Source of the DNA: an uncultured Candidatus Saccharibacteria bacterium
Lineage (GTDB): Bacteria; Patescibacteriota; Minisyncoccia; Ryanbacterales; GWA2-47-10b
Reading direction: 5' to 3'
DNA: 64,000 bases
NCBI GenBank assembly: GCA_964356915.1
Contig: CAYHJF010000001.1
Span: 4,664 to 68,663, forward strand
Position numbers and translations under genes: made by a program
The notes under the pieces: generated by a model
Seen by the model: the letters and a program-made list of their open reading frames with translations, nothing else
Told to the model about the DNA's origin: nothing
Database searches by the model: none
Shown: positions 5,301 to 62,204 of the stretch, piece after piece
Layout: each line of letters opens with the position of its first letter
Position numbering within the stretch: position 1 is the stretch's first letter

Positions 5301-5632
5301 GCAAAGAAAATTTCTTGCGTTTTAATCTCGCCTGTACGCTTATTAGTCAATCGTACTTTAACGCGTAATGGAGCTTCATATGAGAGGTTATTTGCCTTCG
5401 CATGATGCTCGTCAAACTTTGGCTCTTCGAGGGTATAATCAAGAAATTCAAGCTGAAGCTCTTTGCCAGTAAAATCCTCGATCGGATTAAACTCATCGAG
5501 CAACTCACGAAACCCATGCTCCAAAAACCACTTGTAAGAATTGAGCTGCGTCTCTGCTAAGTGTGGCAGTGGCGCAAGTGACTCTTTGTAACGCGAAAAA
5601 TACTTTTTTTGCATAGAGTCTTTATATGACAT
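2387..5632 (-). CDS. rpoB: DNA-directed RNA polymerase subunit beta
   Basis: 1081-aa ORF with conserved RpoB blocks throughout. A GGAGGGG Shine-Dalgarno sits 5 nt upstream of the ATG at 5632. Confidence 0.97.
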   Translation of the reverse strand: MSYKDSMQKKYFSRYKESLAPLPHLAETQLNSYKWFLEHGFRELLDEFNPIEDFTGKELQLEFLDYTLEEPKFDEHHAKANNLSYEAPLRVKVRLTNKRTGEIKTQEIFFADFPVMTNHGTFVINGIERVIVSQLARSFGVYFTAEYYRAKRRFGAKVIPNRGVWLELESDADGAIWAKIDRKRKFPISILLRIFGLATNDAIRKAFEHITDDALNSIEATLKKDTTTTQDEAYIEIYRRIRPGEMAAIDNARQLITAMFSPDRYDLSAVGRYKMNLRFKSLGGGKEEVRTLTQKDLMLTIGEIIRKNNTPDEVEDDIDHLGHRRVRAMGEMLQNRLRVGLARMERNIQDRMSTLEPDAITPVQLVNARPFMSVLKEFFTTNQLSQFMDQINVLSQLEHKRRLSALGPGGLTRERAGFEVRDVHPSHYGRICPIQTPEGPNIGLVSHLATHARVNNFGLIETPYRKVTGGKITEEIVYLTAHEEALYAIAHAGVDYNEKGHLLDEEVEARIKGQPKRVPREEINFIDVSPAQAFSIATALIPFLGHDDANRALMGSNMQRQAVPCVKPQAPLVATGFEGPAAHDSGLLVLADEDGKVTYVDAKKITIKTGHRDREYNLISYARSNQDTALHHRPIVNVGERVTKGQVLADNSSTDGGELALGQNLLVSFLSWGGATFEDAIIISEKLVKHDRFSSIHVEEFTLDVRDTKLGEEVTTHDIPNVGEEKLKDLDEDGIIRVGAEVRAGDILIGKITPKGESDLTPEERLLRAIFGEKAKEVKDTSLRMPHGKRGRVVGIKVFSRDQGHRLETGVIKRIHVEVAQLRKISVGDKLAGRHGNKGVISKVLPEEDMPHLADGTPVDIILNPLGVASRMNLGQILETHLGWAAEKLGYQAICPPFITPTEEEIAGELKKAGIPENGKVPLYDGRTGERFDRDVMVGKIYVLKLNHMVEDKIHMRSIGSYSLITQQPLGGKAQGGGQRFGEMEVWALEGYGAAHTLQEMLTIKSDDVLGRAAIYDAIVRGERLKNPNLPASFHVLLNELKGLALNVMITNLPRAHSDEISDEEDRSETTARRVSRAERI

Positions 5633-5820
5633 AAAAACCCCTCCCTTCCGCTTGTGTTCAGGGTTTTTTGCTATTAAAAATGGTTACTATAAGAGTAAAC
5701 CACGCGATTGGATTGATTTGATGAGGTTTGTCCGATACATACCGTGACCCATCCTTGTTCGTAACAGACAAAACACACCAGTGCGGAATATGCGCATTAT
5801 ACGCGCAAGCTGAATATCTG

Positions 5821-6693
5821 TCAAGCTCCTGAATGACGCCAGCGAGCGATAGAAACCAAAAGAGGGCTGGCAATGAAAATTGACGAATACGTACCAACCC
5901 CAATGCCAAGAATTAATGTAAGCGCAAGGTTTTTAGTCGCCTCACCACCAAAAATATACACCGCAACCATGGAAAGGAGCGTGGTCAATGATGTATTAAT
6001 CGATCGACTAATCGTCTCACGGAGACTCTGATCAACGAGTGTCTCAAATTTTTCCTTACCTCCACGGCGCAGATGCTCGCGAACGCGGTCGAAGACAACG
6101 ATTGTATCGTGTACGGAAAACCCAATTACCGTTAATACTGCGGTAATAAAGAGCGCATCAACTTGAATTCTAAAATATGAGAAAACACCGATCGGGATAA
6201 TAACGTCATGGAAGAGCGCAACAACAGCGACAACACCGTAAATCCACGAAGGCAACGGATGAGATACTTTACGAAAGGCCCAGGCAATATACAAAATGAT
6301 AGCAATAAGCGCGATCGTAACTGAAATGACAGCATTGCGCCGTAGCTGATGACCCACCGATGGTCCCGTAGAAGAAAAACTCTTTTCTTCTACACTTCCG
6401 TCCTTACGAAGAGCTTCGAGTAATACATCGTGTTTTTCTTGGGTAAGATATTCTGTACGAATTATTGCGTCAGATCCATTAAACTGGATTGACGAATGAG
6501 AAATGCCCGCGCTCTTAATTGTTTGGCCGACTGCCTCTGCTGACCGCTCAGAGTTAAAGTGTATAGATAATACTGCATCTCCTGTAAAATCAGAGCCTAA
6601 ATTAATACCACGCGTCACAAGTGACAAAGCCGCAGCAGAGAAGAGAACTGCGGAAAGTATGTAAAATATTTTACGTGATCGTACAATGCTCAT
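5821..6693 (-). CDS. secF: protein translocase subunit SecF
   Basis: 290 aa with multi-TM SecF-like topology. Immediately downstream of secD. Confidence 0.88.
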   Translation of the reverse strand: MSIVRSRKIFYILSAVLFSAAALSLVTRGINLGSDFTGDAVLSIHFNSERSAEAVGQTIKSAGISHSSIQFNGSDAIIRTEYLTQEKHDVLLEALRKDGSVEEKSFSSTGPSVGHQLRRNAVISVTIALIAIILYIAWAFRKVSHPLPSWIYGVVAVVALFHDVIIPIGVFSYFRIQVDALFITAVLTVIGFSVHDTIVVFDRVREHLRRGGKEKFETLVDQSLRETISRSINTSLTTLLSMVAVYIFGGEATKNLALTLILGIGVGTYSSIFIASPLLVSIARWRHSGA

Positions 6694-6696
6694 AAA

Positions 6697-7986
6697 TTAT
6701 GGTTTGAGATTAAAGCCACTTGCATAGAAGAAACCTCCCGCCCCCTGTTTACGTGAGTGAAACGCTCGCAAAAATGTGCGCGTAACCGTAATAGCAGAGA
6801 ACATGGAAATCGCGACACCTAAGCCAAGCGTAAGTGCAAACCCCTTCACCGCATCAGACCCGAAGTACCATAGAATAACTGCGGTAATAAGACTTGATGC
6901 ATTAGAATCTCGAATGGACGTCCACGCGCGCTCAAAACCCTCTTCAATAGCAGCACCTAGCGTCTTTCCTTTTCGCAGTTCTTCTTTCATGCGTTCAAAA
7001 ATTAAAATATTTGCATCAACTGCCATGCCAATTGAAAGTACAAAGCCAGCAATACCTGCAGTCGAAAATGTCACGGGAATGAGCTTGAACACACTAAGTG
7101 AAATGGCAGTATATACACCAAGAGCAAGCACTGCGACTAATCCCGGCAATCGATACCACGCAATCATAAAACCAATAACAAAGAGAAGTCCAACAACTGC
7201 AGCAAAGAAACTTTGGCGTAGTGACGCCTCTCCGTGAGCCGGTTCCACTGTTTGCTGTGATATCAACTCAATGGGCACTGGCAACGCTCCTGAATTCAAG
7301 CGCTGGACAAGTGTACGCGCCTCTTCGGTAGTAAACCTACCTGTAATACGTGCCTTTCCTCCAGAAATTTTCTCCTGAACTACAGGAATGCTGATCGGCG
7401 CTCCATCAAGATAGATAGCAATGCTCTTTCCTACATTTTGCGCGGTAAGCTCTTCAAAAAGCCTTGCACCTTCTGAATTAAAAATTAATTCAACGAATGG
7501 GCCGGCCGTCGGGTCAAATTGTAAAGCTGCCCGCTCAACAAAGCGTCCCGTAAGCTCCGTGGGAACATAGACTACTTGTGCCTCCGTTGATGTACCAAGT
7601 TTAAGCTCTTGTGCTGTACGAAACTCTACGTATGGAGTCTCACCGATAAGCGCGATCGCCTCCTTTGCGTCAAAAACGCCAGCAAGCTGTACTTGCAAAC
7701 GATCTTCCTCGCGCGTCCGCTCCACTCTTACGAGCGGTTCGGCAACACCAAAAAAGTTTACTCGACGCTCAACAACGTCACGTAACCCCTCGAGCGCCTC
7801 TGCCCGCTTACTATCTTCAATCTTTGAAAGATCGGCGCGATAGGTCAGATGTACTCCTCCTTTCAAATCAAGTCCGAGTCGAAATGGAACGTTAAACCAT
7901 TCGGGAGCGCCCCATTTTGGATAGACAAAATACCCGGCGGCAAGACCGAGTACAACGAGACCAAGAGCAGCAAGTCGTATTTTCAT
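6697..7986 (-). CDS. secD: protein translocase subunit SecD
   Basis: 429 aa with an N-terminal TM segment, a large periplasmic domain and a C-terminal TM bundle. Gene order is secD-secF. Confidence 0.88.
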   Translation of the reverse strand: MKIRLAALGLVVLGLAAGYFVYPKWGAPEWFNVPFRLGLDLKGGVHLTYRADLSKIEDSKRAEALEGLRDVVERRVNFFGVAEPLVRVERTREEDRLQVQLAGVFDAKEAIALIGETPYVEFRTAQELKLGTSTEAQVVYVPTELTGRFVERAALQFDPTAGPFVELIFNSEGARLFEELTAQNVGKSIAIYLDGAPISIPVVQEKISGGKARITGRFTTEEARTLVQRLNSGALPVPIELISQQTVEPAHGEASLRQSFFAAVVGLLFVIGFMIAWYRLPGLVAVLALGVYTAISLSVFKLIPVTFSTAGIAGFVLSIGMAVDANILIFERMKEELRKGKTLGAAIEEGFERAWTSIRDSNASSLITAVILWYFGSDAVKGFALTLGLGVAISMFSAITVTRTFLRAFHSRKQGAGGFFYASGFNLKP

Positions 7987-22645: not shown

Positions 22646-22668
22646 CGCCGGCAGGAGGGATCGATTTC
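22646..22668 (-). repeat. direct repeat of the tRNA-Met 3' end (T-loop, T-stem and acceptor 3' strand)
   Basis: GCCGGCAGGAGGGATCGA(18 nt) is identical to 22762-22779 inside the tRNA-Met gene. No matching 5' acceptor strand is nearby. Confidence 0.7.
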
Positions 22669-22760
22669 CTTCTCAGAAATTCCGGGGTTTCGCTATGCTT
22701 CGCATATAGCTCAACCCTTCGCCCCCTCACACAAGCAAAGCAGTTTGCTTGTTCTGCCTG

Positions 22761-22832
22761 TGCCGGCAGGAGGGATCGAACCTCCGACCTAAGGCTTATG
22801 AGTCCTTCGCTCTACCACTGAGCTATGCCGGC
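22761..22832 (-). tRNA. tRNA with CAU anticodon (elongator Met or Ile2)
   Basis: 72 nt: acceptor GCCGGCA/TGCCGGC fully paired, D-arm GCTC-AGTGGTA-GAGC, anticodon loop CTCATAA, T-arm GGAGG-TTCGATC-CCTCC. Confidence 0.85.
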
Positions 22833-31127: not shown

Positions 31128-31200
31128 AGTTGCGGGGGTTGGATTTGGTTTGCCTTATCGCAAACCCGCGGCATGCCCCCAGCATGCCGTTCAAATCCTC
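31128..31200 (-). repeat. degenerate partial copy of the tRNA-fMet 3' end, embedded in a tRNA-like hairpin remnant
   Basis: AGTTGCGGGGGTTGGATTTG (20 nt, plus strand) is identical to 31264-31283 at the 3' end of tRNA-fMet. The adjacent sequence forms hairpins (GGCATGC-tgggg-GCATGCC; GGTTTGC-gataag-GCAAACC) but does not fold into a complete tRNA. Confidence 0.6.
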
Positions 31201-31265
31201 CCGCCTCCCTACGAATGCATAAATAAAAAAAGCTGACACATTGTGCCAACTTTTTTATTTATGAG

Positions 31266-31339
31266 TTGCGGGGGTTGGATTTGAACCAACGACCTCAAGG
31301 TTATGAGCCTTGCGAGCTACCAGGCTGCTCCACCCCGCG
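31266..31339 (-). tRNA. initiator tRNA-fMet (anticodon CAU)
   Basis: 74 nt with C1xA72 acceptor mismatch (CGCGGGG / CCCCGCA+A) and A11:U24 in the D-stem, both initiator hallmarks. Anticodon loop CTCATAA; T-arm GTTGG-TTCAAAT-CCAAC. Confidence 0.87.
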
Positions 31340-53465: not shown

Positions 53466-53744
53466 AACAAGAAAAATGAGGCAGCCTTTATATAGTCAAC
53501 TGCCTCGAGACTATACCGAGATTTGTAACCCATGAGTAGCCCATGCGCCATAGGTGCACTTACAAGCACTACAGGAAAACTCTGCGAATAAGCGCATCAC
53601 GCCATCGACAACACATCTTGTGACTTCAACGCGCAGGCCATGAATACATCTACCTACAAGAACCATGGATTCCACGGTACATACCTCCTACCACAACCGT
53701 AACAGAAAATACCCCTATTTTATAGAGGTATTTTCTTTATAGCA

Positions 53745-53784
53745 GTCCGCTCCCCTGGACTCGAACCAGGAACCGCCGAGGTAT
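53745..53784 (-). tRNA. 3' half of a split tRNA (anticodon-loop 3' part TATAC, variable loop, T-arm, acceptor 3' strand GGAGCGG+A)
   Basis: TATAC-CTCGG-CGGTT-CCTGG-TTCGAGT-CCAGG-GGAGCGG-A. The acceptor 3' strand is perfectly complementary to CCGCTCC at 53963-53969. Confidence 0.65.
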
Positions 53785-53827
53785 ATCTACGATCTGGAAG
53801 GTTCGCTCGGATCAACTGCAAATGTAT

Positions 53828-53900
53828 ATCCGCCTGCTTGGACTCGAACCAAGAACCCCCGAGGTATAAGCTCGGTGCTCTAACCATTGAGCTACAGGCG
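53828..53900 (-). tRNA. tRNA-Ile (anticodon UAU as encoded), complete, nested between the two halves of the split tRNA
   Basis: 73 nt: acceptor CCGCCTG/CAGGCGG+A, D-arm GCTC-AATGGTTA-GAGC, anticodon stem CCGAG/CTCGG with loop CTTATAC, T-arm CTTGG-TTCGAGT-CCAAG. Confidence 0.8.
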
Positions 53901-53933
53901 GACGCACATTTTCAATAATCATTCGCTGCCTTC

Positions 53934-53969
53934 CATAAGCTCAGTGCTCTAACCATTGAGCTAGGAGCG
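53934..53969 (-). tRNA. 5' half of a split tRNA (acceptor 5' strand CCGCTCC, D-arm, anticodon stem 5' strand and CTTAT)
   Basis: CCGCTCC-TA-GCTC-AATGGTTA-GAGC-A-CTGAG-CTTAT. The D-arm is identical to the nested tRNA. The fragment ends in the anticodon. Confidence 0.65.
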
Positions 53970-54002
53970 GATACGGACTATCACTAGTATAGTCCGCTCG
54001 AG

Positions 54003-55820
54003 CTATGCCGCAACCATCTTAGCAAACTCATCGCGCTCGATTGTTTCGTATTGAATGAGATGCTGTGCGATTGTTTCCAATTTTTCTCGGCGCGTCATAA
54101 GAATCTTTTTCGCTGACTCGTACGCCTTTTTCATGAATGACTGAACTTCTCTATCTATTTCTGAGGCAGTTTCTTCAGAAAAATTACGCTCTGAATGTAT
54201 CTCGCGTCCCAAAAATACCATGTCTGATTGCTCGCCAAATGTAATAGGACCGAGTTTCTTTGACATACCATATCGTTGGACCATATTGCGCGCGAGTGCA
54301 CTTGCCTTACGAATATCATCGGAAGCTCCCGTAGTCATCTCACCAAAAATAATTTCTTCGGCTGCATACCCACCAAGTGAAACCGCGAGTTCATCTAAGA
54401 AATGCTCGCGCGTATGAAGATGGCGATCGTGATCAGGTAATTTGAGCGTGTATCCAAGCGCGCGGCCACGAGAGATAATAGTCACCTTGTGAACAGGATC
54501 AGCATTTGGCAACGATGCGGCAACAAGCGCGTGTCCTGCCTCATGGTATGCTGTGATCTTTTTCTCTTTTTCTGTCAGAACAAAACTTTTGCGTTCAGGA
54601 CCCAAGAGCACCTTATCAATCGACTTCAAAATATCTTGCTCCGAAATTTCTTTTTTACTTGAACGAGCGGCAAGGATTGCTGCCTCATTGATAAGATTTT
54701 CAAGATCAGCGCCGGAAAATCCTGGAGTACGCTCCGCAACACGCTTGAGTCGTACACCAGACGCGAGAGGCTTTTGATGAGAGTGCACAGTCAAAATTGC
54801 TTCACGTTGCTTGATATCTGGCAAATCAAGAATAACACGGCGGTCAAAGCGCCCAGGACGCAATAATGCCGGATCTAATACGTCAGGACGATTTGTCGCA
54901 GCCATAATAATCACTTGATCGCGCGATTCAAAGCCATCCATCTCAACAAGGATTTGGTTCAATGTCTGCTCTCGCTCATCATGGCCACCGCCAAGCCCCG
55001 CGCCTCGCTGGCGACCAATCGCATCAATCTCATCAATAAAGATAATCGCGGGAGCAGCTTTTTTGCACGCGCGGAATAAATCGCGCACGCGTGATGCTCC
55101 GACTCCAACAAACATTTCAACAAACTCAGAAGCCGCGATATGAAAGAATGGTACACCCGCTTCTCCGGCAACCGCTCGAGCAAGCAAAGTCTTTCCTGTG
55201 CCCGGAGCTCCCATAAGAAGTACGCCTCGAGGAATGCGCGCACCGATATCAAAGAATTTTTTTGGATGCCGTAAAAATTCTACGATCTCTTTCAACTCCT
55301 CTTTCGCTTCATCAACACCAGCAACATCCTTAAAAAGAACTCTCTCTTTTGTATTATCAGGCGTAATTACTCGAGCGCGTGACTGACCAAATCCAAACGT
55401 CTGAACGTTGGCACGATTTACCTGACGACCCATGTACCAGAAAAATCCTACAAAAAAGAGAATCGTGATGAGTGTTGGAAGCGTCGCTCCAAGCCAAAAA
55501 AAGATACCTGATGGATTTTTTTCCGAGTGCGTAAAGCTCGCAAGCTTTTCTTGCGGAACACCGACATTTACCAATGTTTCAGTTAATGATGAACCCTCTT
55601 CTTTTTTAGATGTTCTTTTGGAATCATCCTTTAGGGTCACAAGTAAATCATTACCGGTAACAGCGATCTCTTTTACTTCATCCGCCTTAATCTTCTGCAC
55701 GAGCTCAGATAACGCAATATCTTGTACCTTTTGTGTGGAGCCAGCAACCATAGACCAAGCAAACGCAATCCCGATCAATATCAAGAAAACATAAGCGAAC
55801 TGTTTTGCAAAAATTCTCAT
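54003..55820 (-). CDS. ftsH: ATP-dependent zinc metalloprotease FtsH
   Basis: Two N-terminal TM helices, AAA+ Walker [19 protein letters not shown], second region of homology, and zinc-binding HEAGHA. Confidence 0.95.
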
Positions 55821-59700: not shown

Positions 59701-60329
59701 ACTTGCTCCCATGTCATTCCTACCGCATCCTGTATATTTATCTTTTTTTGTTCGATACCACGCGCGATCTCTGACCAGCTTTGCGCAAAATTAATTGGAC
59801 GAGGCGCTTCTGCCTGAACCGGCATCGATTCGGGTGCGACTATTGCCTCTGTAGCTGAAACTGGGCTTTCAACAACGATGCCTTCTGGAGCTGCTTTAGC
59901 AGAAACAGGATTTAAAACTTCTGAAACTTTTGGTACCTCTGGAACTATTGTTTTTTGCTCGAGTTGCTGAGTATTGAGCGTTGTATTTGTAACTACAGTA
60001 GAAGCTCCTGATGTCGTCGTGGAAGGCGCGGAAACCGTCGGATTAATTCTTTGCTTTTCCTCTTCACGCTTTTTTGCAATTGCTTCAGCAATACCTGCAA
60101 ACGATGCTGGGCTTACAGGTAAAATATCATCCGTATCAAGTACCGGAGCATTCTCAGGAAGACCCGCTCCTTTTGTTACTCGCACTCCTTCTGGCGCAAT
60201 CGTAATATCAGGAGCATCGATATGCTCCGCTTGTTCACGAATCTGTCCCGTAAGCGCCTCTAAATCTGCATCGGGCGCAATATCAGGACGTTCTTGTTCT
60301 GGCACGTTTGTCGACGGACCTTCATTCAT
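56742..60329 (-). CDS. giant hypothetical protein (1195 aa) with disordered N-terminus and a Gly/Ser-rich degenerate repeat block
   Basis: Single uninterrupted ORF. The N-terminal ~200 aa is Pro/Glu/Ala/Thr/Ser-rich low complexity. The central block has five degenerate x-G-G-x-F repeats (ADGTFIE, AGGSFVA, AGGAFSG, VDGVFIN, AVGAFVQ). No signal peptide or TM helix recognised. Confidence 0.7.
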   Translation of the reverse strand: MNEGPSTNVPEQERPDIAPDADLEALTGQIREQAEHIDAPDITIAPEGVRVTKGAGLPENAPVLDTDDILPVSPASFAGIAEAIAKKREEEKQRINPTVSAPSTTTSGASTVVTNTTLNTQQLEQKTIVPEVPKVSEVLNPVSAKAAPEGIVVESPVSATEAIVAPESMPVQAEAPRPINFAQSWSEIARGIEQKKINIQDAVGMTWEQVAQAADTKRRDDMTRGVVHLGNRLNENIERGFGWVTNAIAERIPSRYRKSSVGRFLIELRDGAYKNAERTQKSRLSYEDMGTVRKAMYGVGSIGSLVGKPLRWGAIAAGYAVPPFMLAMSAGRVGETAKGARFKNETYIEDELRVKDADEAAEEAWALYEEAKKSSAGGPVSAEALGKTYEKKSAANIAERLGRREQGYSAFAFTQRVMDRYVRSRADWIAGRVQAIEENPHRSRTEKDEALARVMRIHASFLRDADNMISQAGVVDLHSARAYTLEKGGKGATLGLTAGAGLKFWSNIYSFFDRHPLTDLDYHVVEGAKTAVREGVPIIKKGFSTASNYLSRMIDGQAEHGGIMGSGGGGAVPPSGGSSGSIGYPPPAFLDENSGSADGTFIERGSAGGSFVAPMGRGSAGGAFSGERPASVDGVFINPIEAHGSGSAVGAFVQHPTASHSEVYSDAMEAAVSKLGAKREAVACVLRNSMDEIERNMASRNGKIEELQRWLADTQTNVEQAGQYKVQIADFKAEIGELDNDFRMVGEQYDYFLREGKLDLVCSPTGDVTREHILEALLAKYGATPRYYTPEMETALDSLQPNYESSAGSFVLETYTLQKGDSPIRALVELYKRSPEGVAKYLGVEPGSLKIADIERLVSRRVVGEYLVEYGQKGGAHFDPKSPESWQAHDILQRAIKGWSEQHHTDPDMSKPEVLNGILSKIPKKDFNLVLHDRVPNLVHAGDVLKVNSAGDYEIFSPKGDVRSGHIPEGGRVHTMSQRVLAPEVAVSTPGEQVVPTNDDGLLDQPNTDTNNVFEPSVSGLPEGETLLGNVGEHSEITYGLEKNPFEGAAWETYIHPDGAVTGRVDLTSYFKGYALDRGRPEWKNFKVFDRIEGFDLPDADGKMDGELDVVRVFDKKRRVIVEVMRGLDDDGRVFSETKRHLYDRVVRHVAEYTDGLRGKNPVRGLDINDGPTGFGRLNHDPAFNYIQPGRSPKE

Positions 60330-60409
60330 ACTGTGTAGTATATCAAAGTAAAATATAAATTGACATGAAAAAAATCTGTGGGGAAAAATTTCTCACAGAT
60401 TATTTAAAA

Positions 60410-60460
60410 AAATCCCGCCTAAAAACGAAACGCCCCGAGAAGATTGCTCTTCTCGGGGGC
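60410..60460 (-). terminator. terminator hairpin at the low-GC/high-GC junction
   Basis: GCCCCGAGAAG-attgct-CTTCTCGGGGGC (bulged) followed on the minus strand by GTTTCGTTTTT. Confidence 0.5.
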
Positions 60461-60517
60461 TGGGTCTTCGCGCGTTGACGAAGAACGTTGAGTTGATGTT
60501 GTTGTTGCTGGTGTCGG

Positions 60518-62029
60518 TCAGCTCGCCGTGGACGCCTGAGCGTCTTCGGAGCGCTGCTGATGCTTGCCGCCGGAACGCCGAGCCTGCGGGTTGGCCGCGT
60601 TGGCGACCATACGCTCCTTGAGGGAGGTGAAGATCGCACAGAACGGCTCGGGCAGATCGGCCACGAGGGTGAAGTCGGCGACCTTGCCGACCGCCTCGTC
60701 CCACTGGGCTTCGTTGTGGTCCACGATGCGGACCTTGCCGTCCCCGTCGCACTCGACGAGGAAGTCACACGCCACGGCGATGTCGCTGTCCTTCAGATAG
60801 ATGACGGCCGTACCCTTCTTCCCGTCGACGATGACGTCGTGGGCGTTGAGCGTGGCATCACCGCGCAGGTTCTTGCGAGCGCCCTTGTCGGCGCCGTCGA
60901 CCTTCTTGGTGCGGGCACGTTCGGCGCGCTGTTCGGCCGCGTGGAGTACCCGCTGGAGCATCTTCATCGTGACGATCATCGCCGTGAACGCTTCCTGCGG
61001 CAGACGCCGAGGGAAGTTGAGCTGGCCGTCGACGAGAGCGGTGACCGGGATGCCGAGACGAGTCTCGGCGGCGCGTTCGACCACACCCTTGCTGCGACCG
61101 ACCGCGGTGATGGGGAAGATCTCCCCGTCCTTGATCGTGATCTTGATGTCGGCGGCCGGATAGAACCGATTGGTAGCCTGCTCTCCAGGAACGTGCACCA
61201 CGATGGTGCTCTCCCGCTGCTCGTTGACGCAGGCGTTGACCGCCTGCTCGAGCGTGAGCTCGTCGGCACCCTCCTTGAGTACCGCGACCTCGATCGCGAT
61301 CTCATCGCGCCGCTTGGCGTCGAGCTTGCCGGAGATCTCGCGAAGTCCGGAGAAGATGGCCGCGATCATGCTGGCAGGAAGGTCACACACGAGGAGCTGA
61401 CGCTCCCAGCGGTTTCCACCCATGTCGATCGTGACGCCGTGCGTCTCGCGACGATTCTCGACCGTGACCGGAAGCTGCACGCCCCGAGACACGTCCGTAC
61501 CGTTGTCCGCCTTCCGCCAGAACCCGAGCCGAAGCCCGAGATCCGCGATGAAGTTGAGAGCCGAGCGCGCCGCCATCTCACCGTCTTCGGTGGTGATGTC
61601 GAACGCACCGGTCACATCTTCGGTCTCGCCGGGCTTGCTCTCGCTCGGCATCTTGAACTCGCCCGTGCGGACGATCTCGACGACGCCGCCGATGAGCGCG
61701 ACCGTGAGGTCAGCGCGGCCCGGCTTGGTCGGCCAGGCCTTGATGTAGGACACGAGGACCTGATCGACCTGGACCCAGAGCTGCTCGACGACGTTGCGAT
61801 ACGTCGCGGGATCGGCGAGCGAGCTGACGATCAGGATGACGTTCTCCGTGATCGTTGCCATGCTCTGCGTGAGCGTGGCCGTGAGCTGCCGGATTCCGAC
61901 CGGCGTGAGCAGATCGAGCTTCCCGAGTGCCGGAGGAATCCTCAGGCCACCGACGGTGACCGAGGCACCCACCTTGCCGATCTCGGCGAGGCTCTTGACG
62001 ACGTTTCCGTTGCGATCGTGCTTCTTCAT
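60518..62029 (-). CDS. hypothetical protein encoded in a ~65% GC block (foreign-looking)
   Basis: 503-aa ORF. ATG at 62029 is preceded by GGAGG at 7-nt spacing. The protein is Ala/Gly/Val/Arg/Asp-rich. In-frame competing ORFs on every strand are typical of high-GC DNA. No motif recognised. Confidence 0.65.
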   Translation of the reverse strand: MKKHDRNGNVVKSLAEIGKVGASVTVGGLRIPPALGKLDLLTPVGIRQLTATLTQSMATITENVILIVSSLADPATYRNVVEQLWVQVDQVLVSYIKAWPTKPGRADLTVALIGGVVEIVRTGEFKMPSESKPGETEDVTGAFDITTEDGEMAARSALNFIADLGLRLGFWRKADNGTDVSRGVQLPVTVENRRETHGVTIDMGGNRWERQLLVCDLPASMIAAIFSGLREISGKLDAKRRDEIAIEVAVLKEGADELTLEQAVNACVNEQRESTIVVHVPGEQATNRFYPAADIKITIKDGEIFPITAVGRSKGVVERAAETRLGIPVTALVDGQLNFPRRLPQEAFTAMIVTMKMLQRVLHAAEQRAERARTKKVDGADKGARKNLRGDATLNAHDVIVDGKKGTAVIYLKDSDIAVACDFLVECDGDGKVRIVDHNEAQWDEAVGKVADFTLVADLPEPFCAIFTSLKERMVANAANPQARRSGGKHQQRSEDAQASTAS

Positions 62030-62204
62030 GACATTCCTCCAATTGTTCCCTCTTTTACCCGGCCGCTGTGCGGTTGTTTTTGAGTAAAAGAGTTTTGTCG
62101 ATGAACACGGTCTCCGATATGGATATACCGCTTGCTACAACAACATATTGTGAAGAACTTCTCCCTCCCGTTTGGTATATCGGGCAAGAGCTTTAAGTTC
62201 GTTA

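Follow-up and report, generated by a model that had tools for sequence, protein, structure and literature searches.

A tRNA-Ile(UAU) gene nested in the anticodon loop of a second one suggests a tRNA-replacing DNA cassette in Patescibacteria

In a 64,000-nt stretch of contig CAYHJF010000001.1 (hereafter the window), a tRNA-Ile(UAU) gene on the minus strand is split in its anticodon loop by a 152-nt insert that houses a second, full tRNA-Ile(UAU) gene. The host is an ultra-small groundwater bacterium. The non-tRNA arms of the insert make up a ~75-nt core with helices P1, P1a, and P2; this core is a real, conserved element that occurs in distant Patescibacteria in three settings: nested, with one outer half missing or decayed, and free-standing in intergenic DNA without a tRNA. 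Related genomes suggest a cassette that invades and replaces the resident gene, not a spliced intron. We hold it somewhat better than an even bet that the insert is a structure-guided, DNA-level cassette placed after TTAT of the anticodon loop, with a working inner gene and outer halves that represent a freshly disrupted gene. This reading is based on the anatomy of the locus, the homology and covariation of the core, its tRNA-less copies, the decay of outer halves, and a conflict between tRNA type and genome relatedness.

Results

On the minus strand the locus consists of half A of the outer tRNA, a 5′ arm of the core (c5), the inner tRNA B, a 3′ arm (c3), and half C. Half A (53970-53935, CCGCTCCTAGCTCAATGGTTAGAGCACTGAGCTTAT) has the layout CCGCTCC-TA-GCTC-AATGGTTA-GAGC-A-CTGAG-CTTAT, which comprises the acceptor strand, the D arm, the anticodon-stem strand CTGAG, and the loop CTTAT. 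The 33-nt spacer c5 (53934-53902) is homologous to c5 of five other loci in our survey (L030, L093, L095, L104, and L107) and runs from the P1 strand GGAAGG (53934-53929) through CA, the P1a strand GC, and GA to a stalk strand with AAATGT (53911-53906). After B (53901-53829; acceptor CCGCCTG/CAGGCGG) comes c3 (53828-53783), a 46-nt spacer including the repeated TAT, whose motifs are common to the other core copies: the stalk strand ACATTT (53825-53820), the invariant ATCCGAGCG (53812-53804), the P1 strand CCTTCC (53801-53796), and the invariant tail ATCGTAGATAT (53793-53783), the final TAT of which repeats the anticodon. Half C (53782-53746, ACCTCGG...GGAGCGGA) is laid out as AC-CTCGG-CGGTT-CCTGG-TTCGAGT-CCAGG-GGAGCGG-A, with the T arm CCTGG/CCAGG, the acceptor strand GGAGCGG, and the discriminator A. 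An earlier note on this DNA had described the nested tRNA, the pairs of closing boxes, and an intact outer cloverleaf; its coordinates are each 1 too low, and all of these features are confirmed by the sequence, ARAGORN run with introns, and a check of the stems.

B scores 71.7 bits against the Rfam tRNA family RF00005 (threshold 29) and forms a canonical cloverleaf in ARAGORN. A standard ARAGORN run calls B alone. The intron-aware run, which the earlier note had proposed as a check, calls B plus an outer 74-nt tRNA-Ile(tat) at c[53745,53970] with a 152-nt intron, again a canonical cloverleaf. In the joined A+C tRNA the acceptor and anticodon stems are wholly paired, with one G-U. The compensatory differences from B that had been listed at pairs 5-68, 6-67, 7-66, and 50-64 are all present, and positions 28 and 44 differ as well. 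That these changes show A+C to be maintained as a functional tRNA, as the earlier note argued, does not follow: they indicate only that both were working tRNAs before the insertion. B is presumed to be the working gene. A 236-nt transcript of the locus folds far better than shuffled sequences (z = -5.2), and half C directly repeats the 3′ half of B. Directly past the outer 3′ half, on the same strand, an A+T-rich hairpin found by eye (53700-53745, AAAATACCTCTATAAAATAGGGGTATTTT) is a candidate terminator of the unit; a strict terminator scan does not call it, and a consensus scan finds no promoter within c5.

Our survey combined loci around relatives of FtsH with a metagenome scan that used a motif from the 3′ spacer. 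The ftsH gene (54003-55820, minus strand, assigned by Pfam) lies directly upstream of the nest and served as the anchor for finding relatives; loci with FtsH 50-63% identical, among the matches listed in a scan of genome contigs, served as one survey set. The combination ATCCGARCG-N10-ATCGTAGATAT plus AAGYGAGGAT recurs in distant Patescibacteria whose FtsH is 56-60% identical to that of the window. The c3 consensus thus comprises the invariant ATCCGARCG, 10 variable bases, and the invariant tail, which abuts the 3′ half, and the c5 consensus is an AAGYGAGGAT-like motif. The two c3 motifs keep an identical 10-nt spacing in L030, L093, L110, L102, L096, L112, L095, L104, and L107.

The helices of the core covary. 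P1 reads GGAAGG/CCTTCC in the window, AAUUUC/GGAAUU in L030, AAUUUC/GAAAUU in L095, and AAUC/GAUU in L104, so that between the window and L030 all six pairs are changed and pairing is kept. The 2-bp P1a covaries as well (GC/GC, GU/AC, and GU/GC) and is followed by a tandem G-A/A-G, P2 (GGAU/AUCC), and the A+U-rich stalk. UAU of the left flank pairs with AUA adjoining P1, and the 11-nt tail is unpaired. Separate minimum-free-energy folds of five core copies return the same architecture. G-U pairs in the core helices are tolerated on the tRNA-sense strand only, which assigns the fold to this strand, whether it is RNA or single-stranded DNA. The left flank is T(T/G)AT at every copy (window, L030, L093, L095, L104, L107, and L034), namely CTTAT in the tRNAs, TTGAT in L104 and L107, and TTTAT in L095. 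The covariance model R1, whose training set includes the window, matches window positions 53781-53939 at 49.7 bits. By covariance model the core is present once per locus and once in the 64-kb window, and a search of 613 kb yields no further copies. A viral origin finds no backing in viral contigs, where all 62 matches are chance matches that have neither TAT nor the c5 motif.

Three copies of the core carry no tRNA. In L095, L104, and L107 a core of 72-75 nt with a small hairpin at its tip stands in intergenic DNA, 25-35 nt upstream of unrelated genes that encode NusG, a small membrane protein, and a metallo-beta-lactamase-fold protein. The L095 copy lies in a 136-nt secE-nusG spacer; in 13 contigs with NusG 95-99% identical to that of L095 this spacer is only 53-76 nt long and the core is absent. 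The core is therefore an insertion/deletion polymorphism at this site and not an operon leader, with presence and absence both seen and the exact boundary left unfixed by diverged flanks instead of a clean empty site. A role as a cis-regulatory leader was rejected on the same grounds, the nusG copy being missing in close relatives and the genes downstream of the free copies being unrelated. An Rfam search of the tRNA-less copies and the window locus gives no relevant family at E <= 5-10. Between the core and the nusG leader of L095 (reverse strand), 13 nt (AGTCGTAACCTCC) contain GTCGTAAC and CCTCC, which also occur near the 3′ end of 16S rRNA, probably by chance.

The same three-part arrangement as in the window, which the earlier note had suggested looking for in related genomes, is found in L030 (an NCBI metagenome-assembled genome, MAG; FtsH 60% identical to the window's) and in L093/L110, with spacers homologous to those of the window. 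The closest relative with a nest is represented by L006-L009 (four samples; FtsH 77% identical to the window's and 88% to that of L010), where a tRNA-Ile(UAU) on an 11-bp stalk stands between half-tRNA pieces directly after ftsH. The outer pieces are of the local resident type, 84-85% identical to the single tRNA-Ile genes of L011, L012, and L004, and they are damaged: 0 of 7 acceptor pairs form, one pair of the anticodon stem is mismatched, and a G stands at position 37. The inner tRNA belongs to a different type, only 67% identical to its own outer tRNA. The sister locus L010 has the inner type only and no 5′ half upstream.

Elsewhere the outer gene is reduced further. L051 and L096/L112 consist of a tRNA, c3, and a damaged 3′ half, with no recognizable 5′ half; L102 and L096 have both lost 1 nt from the anticodon-stem strand of their 3′ half; and L034 has decayed pieces on both sides and a degenerate, empty core. 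In L044, a genome of the Kazan group, the reverse strand has a tRNA-Met(CAU) 5′ half followed by a perfect 14-bp stalk (CCCGGTTAAAAATTTT / AAATTTTTAACGGG) that encloses a complete tRNA-Met(CAU) (rc 5991-6065); in the surveyed sequence of about 60 nt on either side of this tRNA there is no recognizable 3′ half and there are no c5 or c3 motifs. L093/L110 and L042 are multi-layer onions with surplus displaced halves. The three-layer tRNA-Val(GAC) onion of L042 (about 5830-6310, plus strand) has a stalked complete tRNA in the D loop of a second, otherwise intact tRNA-Val, which itself lies in the anticodon loop of a third; the D and T loops of this outermost tRNA-Val contain hairpin inserts as well. 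In L093 each layer has a leader and a trailer that are alike. The decayed outermost 5′ half of L093 (2019-2094, plus strand) has a 44-nt D-loop insert; within it are a hairpin, ATGAATA...TATTCAT, and the sequence CGGAGCGAA, similar to the core motif CCGAGCGAA.

All credible nests combine a tRNA with its own isoacceptor: Ile in five lineages, Met, and Val twice. Among the matches listed, 92 loci examined with intron-aware ARAGORN contain no credible mixed nest; the mixed nests that the program calls are tandem-gene artefacts, each of which shares an end with a neighbouring plain tRNA. The acceptor stems of inner and outer tRNA differ in every nest. No plain stalked gene without halves was seen, and every tRNA with c3 has a tRNA 3′ half after it. 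The idea that c3 is a degenerate tRNA 5′ half was dropped, as the resemblance is partial in L030 and absent in the window.

The nests of L030 (5587-5821) and L093 (2106-2342) are 97.9% identical over 237 nt that include A, C, c5, and c3, whereas the collinear flanking genes are 74-82% identical. In both genomes recG and an alpha/beta-hydrolase-like gene border the nest, which is oppositely oriented in the two and has immediate flanks that cannot be aligned.

The ftsH gene is a conserved neighbour of tRNA-Ile(UAU) across Patescibacteria, and this tRNA is the commonest one beside it (41 of 94 tRNAs in loci L003-L092, among the matches listed). In many other bacteria the gene that adjoins ftsH is tilS, whose product makes an alternative AUA-decoding tRNA. 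Close relatives differ at the ftsH locus in tRNA-Ile type, in strand (inverted in L011 and L191), and in nestedness. The inner tRNA of L051 is 95% identical to the L003 gene, whereas the two FtsH proteins are 57% identical. B of the window is 92% identical to the single tRNA-Ile(UAU) of L003 and to B of L051, compared with 86% to its own outer tRNA, and the outer 3′ half is identical, from anticodon stem to T arm, to the plain tRNA-Ile(UAU) of the relative L188. tRNA types at this locus disagree with genome relatedness, and their turnover is cassette-like. L003, the closest relative with a plain tRNA-Ile(UAU), has a gene for Endonuclease_7 and one for an rve-type integrase/transposase just downstream of that tRNA (5602-7167, minus strand).

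The window FtsH is 100% identical to a protein of a groundwater Patescibacteria MAG (Hainich well H41); the next-nearest FtsH proteins are of the Parcubacteria type and 73-79% identical. The window is ordinary chromosome, with rpoB, secDF, thyA, folA, gyrB, pheST, ligA, type IV pilus genes, and recG, and the 36 ORFs scanned in these 64 kb of the genome encode no transposase, integrase, HUH, RtcB, or splicing-endonuclease domain.

Partial self-copies lie near 3 of the 6 tRNA genes of the window. The tRNA-Met(CAU) gene at 22760-22832 (minus strand) is followed 95 nt downstream, at 22647-22664 (minus strand), by TCGATCCCTCCTGCCGGC, a copy of its own positions 54-71; the copy is preceded by a degenerate T-stem strand, and the intervening 95 nt hold several hairpins. 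The locus (22647-22832) looks like a small insertion that supplied a replacement 3′ end. An initiator-like tRNA-Met(CAU) (31265-31339, minus strand) has, 117 nt further on at 31129-31147 (minus strand), the sequence CAAATCCAACCCCCGCAAC, which repeats the last 19 nt of the gene. Finally, positions 60001-62000 of the window have a G+C content of 0.60, compared with about 0.45 elsewhere; no rRNA or other Rfam family is found there, and the 507-aa ORF at 60560-62083 (plus strand) has no Pfam match.

Discussion

We propose that the mobile unit is c5-stalk-tRNA-stalk-c3, whose arms would pair into a stem with a complete tRNA-Ile(UAU) at the tip and the single-stranded tail ATCGTAGATAT at the 3′ end. 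Its target would be the resident tRNA-Ile(UAU) gene downstream of ftsH, which it enters directly after TTAT. The chemistry that we favor is a hairpin-guided single-strand transfer by an HUH-type enzyme (IS200/IS605- or Rep-like) that would cut 3′ of (T/G)AT in the loop; the junction of an excised circle would read ...GTAGATAT joined to GGAAGG.... After insertion, ordinary 5′ and 3′ tRNA processing would free B, and B would supply AUA decoding. We infer that the outer tRNA is not matured: its halves would be the disrupted resident gene, still perfect in the window owing either to a recent insertion or to gene conversion that uses B to renew them. Later, one or both halves may decay, or recombination between the repeated tRNA segments may delete them and leave a single, replaced gene. 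The window, its two halves as yet perfect, would stand early in this series. Nests would pair like with like because an insertion survives only if its cargo matches the gene that it destroys.

The cassette shares several traits with elements of the IS200/IS605 family and their miniature derivatives (PATEs), which are moved as single strands by HUH/Y1 transposases and have separate hairpins at their ends. It is inserted directly 3′ of a short motif, T(T/G)AT, and TTGAT and TTTAT are typical IS200/IS605 target motifs. It lacks the usual terminal inverted repeats, its fold is strand-specific, its 3′ end GATAT resembles the target TTAT/TGAT, and the target lies in the loop of a foldable gene. A small 3′ hairpin, ATATC-GTA-GATAT, may form within the element, and the repeated TAT leaves a target duplication ambiguous. 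To our knowledge, tRNA cargo has not been described for the family. The insert resembles the products of HUH-type single-strand transposition and is no more than a putative member of the family. A classical miniature inverted-repeat transposable element (MITE), with TA or TAT duplication and terminal inverted repeats, was rejected: no inverted repeats form the ends, P1 has its 3′ partner 13 nt inward of the end, and the element is single-copy.

Several observations weigh against the cassette. No gene for a transposase (TnpA and TnpB included), an integrase, or an HUH protein was found among the 36 window ORFs or the tested ORFs near other core copies. Unlike typical miniature transposons, the core is single-copy in the 64 kb and in every locus searched, and its two ends pair with each other, unlike the separate end hairpins of IS200/IS605. 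The outer halves in the window have no disabling change. The near-identity of the nests in L030 and L093 has the look of purifying selection acting on what the cassette model treats as junk, unless the nest spread recently; the inverted orientation and unalignable flanks could mean that a recent relocation or transfer explains the 97.9% identity equally well. The sampling of c3-containing loci is, in addition, biased by the search pattern.

Among the other readings, the one that survives best, and that we still consider unlikely, is a new kind of intron. P1 and the stalk would join the outer halves, RNase P and 3′ processing would release B, and precise excision of the core would follow, either self-catalyzed or carried out by some enzyme together with a ligase (RtcB, for example), with ...GAGCUUAU|ACCUCGG... 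as the spliced junction and CCGCUCC/GGAGCGG as the acceptor. One gene would then yield two tRNA-Ile(UAU) with orthogonal acceptor stems. The flawless outer cloverleaf of the window fits this scheme, as does the position of the junctions, the 5′ one inside helix P1 where exon UAU pairs with core AUA, the 3′ one after the invariant 11-nt tail. Covariation with sense-strand G-U pairs and the L030/L093 identity, which extends to arms and outer halves, likewise count in its favor, and the acceptor stems that differ in every nest would prevent misfolding. However, outer halves are broken or unpaired in L006-L009, L051, L096, L102, L044, and L034, efficient splicing would not demand that only like isoacceptors be nested, and the same core occurs in intergenic DNA outside tRNAs. 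The intron or split-tRNA interpretation of the earlier note is therefore left without support from a splicing signature or from the outer halves in general, and is kept alive by the conserved nest of one clade. A broader proposal would place the ~75-nt core in a bacterial tRNA intron class of its own: whether or not it bears a passenger tRNA, the core would be cut precisely out of pre-tRNA-Ile(UAU), by itself or via a host ligase, and the onions would record intron mobility. This strikes us as quite doubtful.

Known intron classes do not accommodate the insert. Patescibacteria are rich in tRNA introns: bacterial group I introns of 184-894 nt are frequent in their anticodon loops, at position 35/36 and others (PMC13011429). 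The insert resembles these in phylum, in the kind of site (the anticodon loop, here at positions 33/34 to 36/37), and in a 5′ junction that lies in a helix with an internal partner. It differs in its length, as 73 of its 152 nt are tRNA where known group I examples have at least 184 nt; nor is there a recognizable catalytic core. No Intron_gpI match appears at E <= 10 over window positions 53600-54100 or in L093, L095, and L107. At the four possible 3′ boundaries the last base is A, U, A, and U, respectively, and the last exon U pairs with A in P1, whereas a group I intron requires a terminal G and a U·G pair. We therefore rejected a group I intron for want of an Rfam match, sufficient length, and a terminal G. 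A bulge-helix-bulge, with two 3-nt bulges on either side of a 4-bp helix at the junctions, could not be drawn by eye on the sequence and its folds, in which the 5′ junction sits in a continuous helix of 7-9 bp and the 3′ junction follows an unpaired tail of 10-12 nt. Hammerhead, HDV-like, and hairpin ribozymes were also discarded, as their core motifs do not fit by eye and no Rfam ribozyme family matches the tRNA-less copies.

The disrupted tRNAs of archaea and algae (multiple-intron, split, tri-split, and permuted), which are processed at bulge-helix-bulge motifs, offer a formal parallel. There too, complementary flanks hold the pieces together, the arrangement can be layered, and insertions occur in D, anticodon, and T loops, as in L042. 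In contrast, the host here is a bacterium, no bulge-helix-bulge was drawn, no splicing endonuclease was seen among the 36 window ORFs, the insert holds a full copy of the same tRNA, and several outer genes are plainly broken.

Less probable still is a scar of an integrase-borne element that brought its own copy of the tRNA into the anticodon loop and was then mostly deleted, so that c5 and c3 would be former attP arms. Integrative elements of tRNA genes (phages, integrative and conjugative elements, and pNOB8-type elements) also target tRNAs, often at the anticodon loop; the incoming tRNA sequence keeps the gene functional, and displaced fragments stay as direct repeats that later decay or scatter. 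The order of tRNA, spacer, and repeated 3′ part in L096 and L051 is that of a textbook attL...attR pair, and each of the two tRNA-Met genes of the window has its last 18-19 nt repeated downstream, after 95 nt in one case and 117 nt in the other. For an archaeal tRNA-Thr, disruption has been modeled through tRNA fragments left by an integrating element (PMC3293823). The window does have the direct repeat of the tRNA 3′ part expected of att sites, yet the 152-nt insert has no ORF and no integrase is found nearby or at any other locus examined. Tyrosine recombinases need 6-8 bp of identity, far more than the TAT shared at the left junction. Double-stranded att arms would have no reason for mutual complementarity with covariation and G-U pairs, and the ends of this ~150-nt unit, which has no recombinase gene and shares 3 nt with its target, form one covarying stem. 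Distant lineages would not have arrived at one and the same ~75-nt remainder through independent deletions. Lastly, integrative elements bring the 3′ part alone, whereas here a complete tRNA was brought and both the 5′ and the 3′ half were displaced; the displaced 5′ half would go unexplained.

We attach little probability to a local duplication with no mobile element, in which a processing stalk comparable to that of RNase III, the usual flank of this tRNA, would have been copied together with the tRNA into the tRNA's own anticodon loop through template switching during replication or unequal recombination. The model accounts for the like leaders and trailers of the L093 layers and is suggested by a parallel with rRNA operons, where a mature RNA is borne on a long RNase III stem of its own leader and trailer; the stem described here, however, is embedded in another tRNA and is also found with an empty tip. 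Similarity is greatest between the inner and outer tRNAs of one genome, as local copying predicts, but those of L006 are of different types and B of the window is nearer to genes of L003 and L051 than to its own outer tRNA. The consistent presence of a tRNA 3′ half after each tRNA-borne c3, with no plain stalked gene as a source, and the presence or absence of free-standing cores among close relatives also argue against it.

That the locus is an artefact, a collapsed or permuted tandem tRNA pair, has next to no probability: metagenome assemblies can mis-join repeats, the sole point in its favor, but 311 nt are identical in two independent assemblies of replicate samples (filters; ERZ1292624 and ERZ1292619) and the longest sequence shared at the A/spacer junction is TAT, with nothing longer to seed a chimeric join, which makes the mis-assembly feared in the earlier note very unlikely, and the same architecture with homologous spacers comes from unrelated projects and assemblers (L030, NCBI MAG; L093/L110, JGI; L006-L009, JGI and ENA, four samples).

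A literature search returned no account of a bacterial tRNA with another tRNA nested inside it, in agreement with the earlier note, nor of this core, and nothing relevant on splicing endonucleases or split tRNAs in this phylum. Insertions that restore the tRNA gene they hit are known. Under either of the two leading readings the structured ~75-nt element is an undescribed motif with simple, testable predictions, and if the intron reading were true instead, it would point to a new bacterial RNA-processing pathway. If the insert is a DNA-level cassette, it would be a minimal selfish or replacement element that is safe in an essential single-copy tRNA gene since it carries a spare copy, and a bacterial counterpart of archaeal disrupted tRNA genes. 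Annotation would then call for caution, as what is recorded around Patescibacteria tRNAs as half-tRNAs or introns may be insertion remnants. Such a cassette would account for the patchwork of tRNA-Ile(UAU) types, orientations, and fragments beside ftsH and would offer the most reduced bacteria a clean route to horizontal turnover of their tRNA genes.

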